Shown piece after piece: positions 2,575 through 2,820 of a stretch of 7,316 nucleotides of DNA. Origin of the DNA: a virus (Duplodnaviria; Heunggongvirae; Uroviricota; Caudoviricetes); the IMG/VR virus record IMGVR_UViG_2778261350_000002. One strand, given 5' to 3'. The notes beneath the pieces were generated by a model. The model did no database searches. It was not told where the DNA came from and saw only the letters and a program-made list of their open reading frames with translations. The number at the start of each line of letters is the position of its first letter. The stretch's first letter is position 1. The position numbers were made by a program, and so were the translations under genes.

Positions 2575-2580
2575 CGGCAC

Positions 2581-2679
2581 ATCCTGAATAATTTTTTACC
2601 ACAGGATATGTAGGTATCTATTGACTATCAATGCGTACCTAAATACTATGTATGCGTACCACATACAACGGAGGATGCA
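2581..2679. promoter_or_regulatory. Divergent promoter/operator region between mnt and arc (P_mnt / P_ant equivalents)
   Basis: A 99-bp gap between divergent repressor genes. Contains a direct repeat ATGCGTACC at 2631-2639 and 2652-2660 (21-bp period), inverted repeats TGTATG-N7-CATACA (2649-2667) and ATCCTG-N15-CAGGAT (2581-2607), and promoter-like hexamers on both strands. Minus-strand candidate: -35 TTGATA (reverse complement of 2627-2632) and -10 TATCCT (reverse complement of 2604-2609). Assigning operators to specific repeats is inference. Confidence 0.55.
2621..2649 (+). promoter_or_regulatory. Candidate sigma70 promoter driving arc-ant (P_ant-like)
   Basis: -35 TTGACT (2621-2626), 17-nt spacer, -10 TACTAT (2644-2649). 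The arc SD GGAGGA lies at 2670-2675 and the ATG at 2680. Confidence 0.4.
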
Positions 2680-2820
2680 ATGAAGGTAAAAACACTGCGT
2701 ATGCCAGAGAAGTTAGAAAAAATCCTTGAAGAGAAAGCAAAGGAAGAGTGTCGCTCATTTAGTGCAGAAGTAATTAAACGGGTGATGGACAGCCTAAAGA
2801 GAGAGGGGATAACGGTGTGA
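2680..2820 (+). CDS. arc: Arc-like ribbon-helix-helix repressor (46 aa); below the ORF-track length cutoff
   Basis: ATG 2680, SD GGAGGA 2670-2675, stop TGA 2818-2820. Hand translation: MKVKTLRMPEKLEKILEEKAKEECRSFSAEVIKRVMDSLKREGITV. It aligns by eye with P22 Arc (...FNLRWPREVLDLVRKVAEENGRSVNSEIYQRVMESFKKEGRI, from memory). It sits immediately upstream of ant and divergent from mnt. Confidence 0.8.
   Translation: MKVKTLRMPEKLEKILEEKAKEECRSFSAEVIKRVMDSLKREGITV

Follow-up and report, generated by a model that had tools for sequence, protein, structure and literature searches.

What serves as operator DNA in a P22-like prophage that has the genes of P22 immI and neither of the P22 operators? immI is the classic second immunity system of phage P22, and its repressors Arc and Mnt are textbook models of DNA recognition by a beta-sheet; to our knowledge, nearly all knowledge of immI comes from the single P22 allele. 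The question is raised by a 7,316-base stretch of viral DNA (IMG/VR record IMGVR_UViG_2778261350_000002; 'the window' denotes this whole stretch), which covers the end of the late operon in a CUS-3-like E. coli prophage of the P22 group (Lederbergvirus) and contains a complete immI-type module at 2317-3988. An initial annotation had proposed that its Mnt/Arc repressor pair and operators have an immI specificity distinct from that of P22. Our analysis suggests that the locus is probably a working immI-type antirepressor control module, with the wiring of P22 and a DNA specificity of its own. We found no paper in the literature that characterises this immI type.

Two repressors and a phased array of one site type

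Both repressors have the ribbon-helix-helix (RHH) scaffold that the initial annotation had assigned to them. Both pass the Pfam Arc model PF03869 (E 2.9e-9 for the Arc-like and E 3.2e-10 for the Mnt-like protein; scores of 37 and 40 bits with a cut-off of 20.4), and both match solved Arc/Mnt structures. For the Mnt-like protein the closest of these is Mnt itself (1mnt, E 1.7e-5), with a HMMER alignment that extends to residue 72, while the Arc-like protein matches Arc structures at E ~5e-4. RefSeq now calls both 'Arc family DNA-binding protein', a name also carried by chain G of PDB entry 9pio (79 aa), which is a weak match to both (E 0.002-0.004). The Mnt-like protein starts with an arm and the ribbon, which are followed by two helices and then a long helix at the C-terminus. 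An AlphaFold2 model computed from a 40-sequence alignment has an extended N-terminus and helices at 17-29, 34-48 and 57-84 (mean predicted local distance difference test score, pLDDT, 77.5), and as modelled the protein shares the architecture of P22 Mnt. P22 Mnt tetramerises via its C-terminal helix, and by analogy the C-terminal helix of the Mnt-like protein would form tetramers as well. The Arc-like protein, in contrast to P22 Arc with its N-terminal arm and ribbon PQFNLRWP, is a minimal RHH protein of ribbon KVKTLRMP that lacks the arm; its predicted reading residues are V3-T5-R7, and it is 38% identical to P22 Arc.

The DNA-reading strands had been described as divergent from P22, by comparison with P22 sequences that prove correct in AF217253 (Arc ..KMPQFNLRWP.., Mnt MARDDPHFNFRMP). 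The strands do differ from their P22 counterparts, but the Mnt-like protein is not simply divergent: its triad Q10-N12-R14 is the Q-N-R triad of P22 Arc, whereas P22 Mnt has H6-N8-R10. Over the same residues, its PQVNLR equals the crystallised F10V mutant of Arc (1BAZ/1BDV). Since the Mnt-like protein carries the Arc triad, some cross-talk with Arc-type sites is possible. The reading head is also fixed, with R4, Y6, K7, P9, Q10, N12, L13, R14 and L15 invariant among 40 Mnt-like homologs of identity down to 46%, drawn from E. coli, Salmonella, Yersinia, Citrobacter, Klebsiella, Serratia, Erwinia, Morganella, Xenorhabdus, Pantoea and Shewanella.

The spacer between the two genes contains one site type, TRSRTAYC (ideal palindrome TAGGTACCTA), in three copies phased by 21 bp that begin at 2611, 2632 and 2653 and are here called L, M and R. 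The 8-mer is TAGGTATC at L and TGCGTACC at both M and R; in other lineages site L is TGCGTACC, TACATACC or the perfect TAGGTACCTA. Each site is a pseudo-palindrome, which suggests a fit to one two-fold symmetric RHH dimer. The direct repeat ATGCGTACC noticed in the initial annotation is present at 2631-2639 and 2652-2660, 21 bp apart, and amounts to two thirds of this three-copy array, the left copy at 2610-2618 being degenerate. It can be extended to ACTATnnATGCGTACC with 14/16 matches. An exact 9-bp direct repeat arises in a 105-bp spacer with P ~0.018 (5000 dinucleotide shuffles), and a 14/16 repeat was reached in 0/1000 shuffles. The narrower pattern TRSGTAYC has 4 matches in the 7.3-kb window, compared with 0.82 expected, and 3 of them lie in the control region. 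A fourth copy of the site motif, TACGTACCTT at 3092-3101 (+), lies 40 nt into ant, where P22 has TACGTGCC; it may be a chance occurrence.

The array is interleaved with two divergent promoters predicted by consensus scan, whose -35 hexamers stand back to back, with sites L and M mirror-placed about this shared -35 region. P22 has the same layout upstream of arc, where Pant reads TTGACA-17-TATATT. Neither P22 O_mnt (AGGTCCACGGTGGACCT) nor P22 O_arc (ATGATAGAAGCACTCTACTAT) has a match at up to 3 mismatches in the 7316 bases, and the initial statement that the P22 operators are absent holds. Alignment of the spacer to P22 O_arc half-sites gave no convincing TAGA-box arrangement, and no dyad of the Arc/CopG style (4-bp box, N5, inverted box) was found by direct reading of 2600-2670. 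The broader claim of a distinct immI specificity stands in so far as the locus has a site array of its own and no P22 operators; the repeats, as three phased copies of one site type, do not give each repressor an operator of its own in the manner of P22.

An inverted repeat, TGTATG (2649-2654)-N7-CATACA (2662-2667), had also been reported and is present around site R. As a 6-bp inverted repeat alone it has no significance (P ~0.28, shuffles of the spacer), and its weight comes only from what relatives conserve: the outer arms of the longer dyad TGTAT-N9-ATACA are retained in divergent relatives whose inner bases have changed, and some relatives have perfect 7-bp arms (GTATGCG/CGCATAC). We rejected a palindrome centred at 2626 (TAGGTA...TACCTA) as an operator; it is better read as the pseudo-palindromic sites L and M, and the left copy is direct in relatives.

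Conservation of the array in related loci

Related loci were collected by a search of IMG/VR with the Mnt-like protein (80 loci), by a back-translated DNA pattern of the Arc-like N-terminus MKVKTLRMPE (80 analysed of 87 matching stretches) and by the Mnt-like homolog alignment against GTDB genomes (22 loci), and from these related loci 63 unique versions of the control region were compared. The block 2603-2667 is near-invariant in this set, and the mnt leader at 2575-2600 shows little conservation. Of the 63 unique cores, 45 have the sites at intervals of exactly 21 bp. The triple pattern occurs in ~150 of the 202 fetched loci, once per locus and always in the mnt-arc spacer, with carriers that include Yersinia, Xenorhabdus, Photorhabdus, Arsenophonus, Chimaeribacter and Pantoea. 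A conserved array that is inherited together with an invariant Mnt-like head in ~150 loci supports an operator specificity of its own for this module.

Which of the two proteins goes with the sites can be approached through four loci, one in Moellerella and three in Providencia (L183, L184, L186 and L187), that carry orphan Mnt-like genes. No second RHH gene (arc) occurs within 1.2 kb of these genes, and upstream of them stand TAGGTATC, TGCGTACC and TAGGTATC at 0, +10 and +21. Relative to these loci, site M of the full module is flanked to left and right by one additional helical turn of DNA; the two additions hold the Pant-like -35 and -10, so that helical phasing is kept. The orphan loci have the same reading head but no arc or ant, and they lie beside tail genes that belong to an unrelated prophage and, at one locus, beside umuD; their conserved upstream block stops exactly after TGTATATGTATACAGT. 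Because the reading residues of the Mnt-like protein are invariant and the loci without arc keep the sites, we assign the three sites to the Mnt-like protein with moderate confidence.

The Arc-like ribbon, on the other hand, varies on one DNA core. Relatives have KVKTLRMP, KKVKTIRMP, PSSVRFP or PVSVRMP, and what stays constant at the DNA-facing positions is limited to V/P, T/S and R. Among the related loci, no site variant tracks the type of Arc-like ribbon (KVKTLRMP, PSSVRFP, PVSVRMP) or the N8/H8 variation of the Mnt-like protein.

The predicted promoters are conserved along with the sites. In the Pmnt-like -10, A2603 and A2608 are invariant and T2607 is present in 52 of 54 unique relatives, and a second lineage has a perfect TACTAT at this position. 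The Pant-like hexamers are kept in relatives as well, with the -35 columns fixed by the anchor used for collection. A pairing of ATCCTG (2581-2586) with CAGGAT (2602-2607) would join the mnt Shine-Dalgarno sequence to the Pmnt-like -10, and the minus-strand RNA 2574-2612 has a predicted fold of -13.1 kcal/mol (z -4.4). Since the predicted Pmnt-like start (~2596) lies inside the hairpin loop, the hairpin would form in read-through transcripts only. This complementarity was rejected as a family-wide feature, as it is confined to the E. coli/Salmonella lineage.

Among 5426 complete E. coli genomes, 147 carry this immI type, with a query coverage of 80% or more in 111; for the P22 type the corresponding counts are 386 and 171. 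A plasmid search with the control region gave a single partial match, in Pantoea. Two metagenome-assembled genomes carry further pairs: one of Armatimonadia has an Mnt of ribbon DPQFKLRLP with three GGACCACGGTGGTCC-like palindromes that resemble P22 O_mnt (L196), and one of Cellvibrionaceae has a window-type Mnt head, an Arc with QFNVRVP and a spacer rich in TATGTA/TACATA (L197). These pairs indicate that immI-like pairs occur far outside Enterobacterales.

Proposed control of ant and competing explanations

In the mechanism that we propose, the Pmnt-like promoter would drive mnt leftward, and the Pant-like promoter would drive arc, the 57-aa open reading frame (ORF) and ant rightward. The Mnt-like protein would bind the three sites on one face of the DNA. 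In a lysogen, occupation of site R, together with M, would block the Pant-like promoter and hence ant, while occupation of site L would limit the transcription of mnt itself (autoregulation). The Arc-like protein, made from the Pant-like transcript, would feed back on the same 60-bp region, and ant synthesis would be shut off after infection; sites L, M and R themselves, or else the TGTAT-N9-ATACA dyad that encloses R, are the candidates for its target. The antisense RNA sar would add a P22-like layer of control on ant translation. As the sites share nothing with P22 O_mnt and O_arc, a prophage of this type should not silence the ant of a P22-type phage, nor the reverse. This heteroimmunity to the P22 type is a prediction, the phenotype lying beyond what sequence evidence can reach.

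Several points weigh against this interpretation. The centre-to-centre spacing of 21 bp is twice that of P22 Arc dimers, and its bridging by an Mnt-like tetramer is hypothetical. Site L is the best match to the palindrome, and strongest binding there would shut mnt off, which is a poor fit to a simple picture of Mnt keeping Pant off. No DNA element specific to the Arc-like ribbon was found in the related loci, which leaves the separate-operator part of the P22 analogy unsupported. The anchor used for collection fixed columns 2621-2625 and 2629-2637, and the locus counts are not independent events, many loci being close relatives. Finally, mnt of Kapi1, a P22-like phage of E. coli with a different immI sequence, is not detectably expressed in lysogens (PMC12922286), and given this case the rules of P22 may not be transferable.

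The lack of an Arc-specific element could have another source. It is possible, though on balance unlikely, that one operator family has two readers, with the Arc-like protein binding the same three TRSRTAYC sites at a different affinity or cooperativity, no separate O_arc, and a hierarchical occupancy of L, M and R. Sites M and R stand at the places of P22 O_arc and O_mnt and yet have the same sequence, the Arc-like ribbons with this core all keep the DNA-facing residues named above, and the Emek/N7 type has Q-N-R in its two repressors and the one motif TAGTAGTAC at its two operator positions. Set against this, V-T-R and Q-N-R differ at two of the three reading positions, a change that switches specificity in P22 (Knight and Sauer 1989, as cited in PMC3413123), and the orphan loci show that the sites need no Arc. 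A more novel reading that extends this one is doubtful: a single phased array would be read by Q-N-R and V/P-T/S-R ribbons, with orphan or extra foreign-type mnt genes as immunity genes. The lysogenic or lytic state of the antirepressor would then be set by which protein occupies L, M and R, and an extra mnt, as in CUS-3, would stop phages of foreign immI from inducing the resident prophage.

Three further explanations are less likely. It is improbable that the module has decayed to a relic within a defective, mosaic prophage, with its genes intact by chance and its control lost. The window does combine CUS-3-like with phiv205-1-like segments as a mosaic, at most 74% of it is covered by any one complete E. 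coli genome, and the ant moron is in rapid flux with degraded versions known (PMC2629481). However, the ORFs, both Shine-Dalgarno sequences, both predicted promoters, sar and its terminator are all intact, and across genera the non-coding core has changed less than the leader beside it, which indicates selection. We regard it as very improbable that the repeats are just promoter architecture or relics of duplication and the inverted repeat an RNA hairpin or terminator. The repeats do overlap the promoter spacers and the -10 region, the 6-bp inverted repeat carries no significance alone, and a scan for terminator-like sites flagged 2667->2649 on the minus strand; but spacers are normally not conserved in sequence and here are near-invariant, and the site type recurs at 10/11 bp upstream of orphan Mnt-like genes without Pant. 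As RNA, the dyad 2649-2667 folds weakly, no better than shuffles (z -0.3 on the plus and z -1.8 on the minus strand), and the expected Pant-like start, near 2656, lies inside it. It is hardly credible, lastly, that the locus has the specificity of P22 (homoimmune) and differs by neutral drift. The Mnt-like protein has N and R in common with P22 Mnt and Q-N-R in common with P22 Arc, but neither P22 operator is found within 3 mismatches, both lack the GTAY core of the sites found here, and CUS-3 keeps both Mnt types. A working module with a specificity of its own remains the reading that we prefer.

Surroundings of the module and comparison with known systems

The features of the window are listed in Table 1. 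The module is flanked by a DNA-transfer gene and the tailspike gene, in the same order as in CUS-3 and P22. Window 2340-2820 is 95-100% identical to CUS-3 (CP000711), with mnt, control region and arc at 95-96% over 2335-2820, window 2740-3100 is 95-100% identical to phage phiv205-1, and resemblance to P22 DNA is confined to the region from ~2980 on.

Table 1. Positions and properties of the features found in the 7,316-base window; promoters are predictions from a consensus scan.
Feature	Position	Strand	Properties
DNA-transfer gene	27-1106	+	Matches annotated 'DNA transfer protein' (gene 16/20-like)
Three small overlapping leftward ORFs	1131-2327	-	3' of the Mnt-like gene
Mnt-like repressor gene	2317-2574	-	85 aa; ATG at 2574, stop 2317-2319; begins MSDRKYKNPQVNLRLP
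Spacer between Mnt-like and Arc-like genes	2575-2679		105 bp; control region
Pmnt-like predicted promoter	2603-2631	-	-35 TTGATA (2631->2626), 17-bp spacer, -10 TATCCT (2608->2603)
Site L	2611-2620		TAGGTATCTA; 9/10 matches to TAGGTACCTA; within Pmnt-like spacer
Pant-like predicted promoter	2621-2649	+	-35 TTGACT (2621-2626), 17-bp spacer, -10 TACTAT (2644-2649)
Site M	2632-2641		TGCGTACCTA; within Pant-like spacer, just upstream of Pmnt-like -35; contains first ATGCGTACC
Dyad TGTAT-N9-ATACA	2649-2667		Around site R; 19-bp near-palindrome TGTATGCG-TAC-CACATACA
Site R	2653-2662		TGCGTACCAC; over expected Pant-like start; contains second ATGCGTACC
Arc-like repressor gene	2680-2820	+	46 aa; begins MKVKTLRMPEKL; Shine-Dalgarno GGAGGA 5 nt upstream
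57-aa ORF	2817-2990	+	Between arc and ant; phrog_17642, E 1e-41 (function unknown); common to phiv205-1
sar antisense RNA	2986-3052	-	Rfam RF00262, full length, 83.9 bits (gathering score 43); opposite ant ribosome-binding site
Antirepressor gene ant	3053-3988	+	P22_AR_N E 1.2e-44, P22_AR_C E 2e-28
Endosialidase tailspike gene	4089-7034		Downstream of ant
neuO start with heptamer repeat	7191-7316		Right end of window

The three leftward ORFs stand where P22 has orf59a and sieA. Their first member (123 aa) has two CxxC pairs and belongs to phrog_4293, another (117 aa) has a C-terminal hydrophobic segment and weak holin/XhlA-like matches, and a third (181 aa) matched no family. As the 123-aa ORF begins 11 nt ahead of the mnt stop, a lysogen probably transcribes the three together from the Pmnt-like promoter. 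On the other side, the start of the 57-aa ORF overlaps the arc stop codon (GTGTGA) and its end coincides with the sar terminator, a terminator-like site at 2989-3020. The same slot holds an unrelated Cys-rich 66-aa ORF in CUS-3 and yet another ORF in Emek, and it appears to be a hot spot for small genes. At the right end, the heptamer AAGACTC in 8.6 copies within 7191-7316 is the poly(psi) phase-variation repeat of neuO, annotated with 19 copies in CUS-3. The last 65 bases (7251-7316) are A-rich, of low complexity and without a match to CUS-3 neuO, and look like a contig-end artefact.

The locus opens no new kind of biology and is a variant of a well-known system. It does reveal a second immI allele that is widespread in E. 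coli and many other Enterobacterales, with an Mnt body bearing the Arc triad, a minimal Arc, a different operator layout and recombination joints just after the arc ribbon. If our interpretation is true, the allele would provide a natural test set for the rules of RHH recognition, a basis to predict which P22-like prophages induce each other via antirepressors, and orthogonal small repressor/operator pairs for synthetic circuits.

Compared with P22, the locus has the same position in the late operon between DNA-transfer genes and tailspike, an mnt unit that diverges from the arc-ant unit under overlapping promoters (predicted here by consensus), two Arc-family RHH repressors of which the leftward one has a C-terminal helix, an ant with P22_AR_N and P22_AR_C domains, and a sar that is ~95% identical. 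Pant and Pmnt of P22 diverge and overlap, and Arc is a repressor of both (PMC2724298). The differences lie in the recognition parts. P22 has two different palindromes and the window three phased direct copies of one site type, which is absent (as TRSRTAYC) from the P22 mnt-arc spacer; the repressors are 38-47% identical to those of P22 over the RHH core only, and the 57-aa ORF between arc and ant is extra. With the structural hallmarks of immI, its overlapping promoters as predictions and an Mnt tetramer by analogy, but neither the operators nor the reading residues of P22, the locus is of the immI kind and probably not of the P22 specificity class.

CUS-3, for which our statements rest on the GenBank annotation (CP000711) and PMC2629481, shares the endosialidase tailspike and the neuO heptamer repeat with the window, and differs in the small ORF between arc and ant and by one change in site L (TAGGTGTC). 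Villafane et al. (2008) noted that CUS-3 apparently has no arc and may control ant differently (PMC2629481). We find a 46-aa arc in it, 96% identical to that of the window, at 3346-3486 (+) of the CUS-3 locus (L001), unannotated within the 'bsq2' boundary sequence; this removes the puzzle of the missing arc and corrects the published impression that phages of the CUS-3 type lack arc and hence control ant in another way. CUS-3 also has a second mnt of the true P22 type (H-N-R, MARDDPHFNFRMP) at 2711-2959 (-) of the same locus, beside the Mnt-like gene, with its own promoter/operator region truncated. The two Mnt types in one phage fit two co-existing specificities, and the foreign-type orphan Mnt might shield the prophage from the antirepressors of incoming P22-type phages.

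Arrays of the MetJ, CopG and ParG type resemble that of the window in having short pseudo-palindromic sites for one dimer in helical phase (PMC3413123; PMC2724298). Those sites are adjacent, at 8-11 bp, whereas the full module spaces its sites by 21 bp and a spacing of 10/11 bp occurs only with the orphan Mnt-like genes. The parallel is limited to function, and we claim no membership.

Two further immI types, those of Emek/N7 and phiv205-1, agree with the module in gene order and in the divergent arrangement of their promoters. The Emek type has an Arc with PQFNLRWP, an Mnt with DPQFNVRMP and TAGTAGTAC repeats, and only the last 40 bases of its arc are common with the window; the phiv205-1 type has an Arc with KILVRMP, an Mnt with SPTTVRIP and an unrelated spacer, and matches the window in the 3' portion of arc and in the ORF that follows it. 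The other ribbons and spacers in these two phages indicate at least four immI types among P22-like phages. By sliding identity, mnt, the sites and the arc ribbon (the first arc codons) stay together and the rest of arc recombines. Prophages of the UMNF18 type share 2340-2660 with a joint at ~2680-2710, and phiv205-1, with a joint at ~2740-2780, shares only the part from ~2740 on. By these joints, the ribbon and its operator move as a unit. It is established that RHH ribbons are portable elements of specificity and that the dimers assemble on sites at regular spacing (PMC3413123); the ribbon/operator unit is a natural counterpart of the Arc/Mnt N-terminal swaps of Knight and Sauer (1989), as these are cited in PMC3413123.

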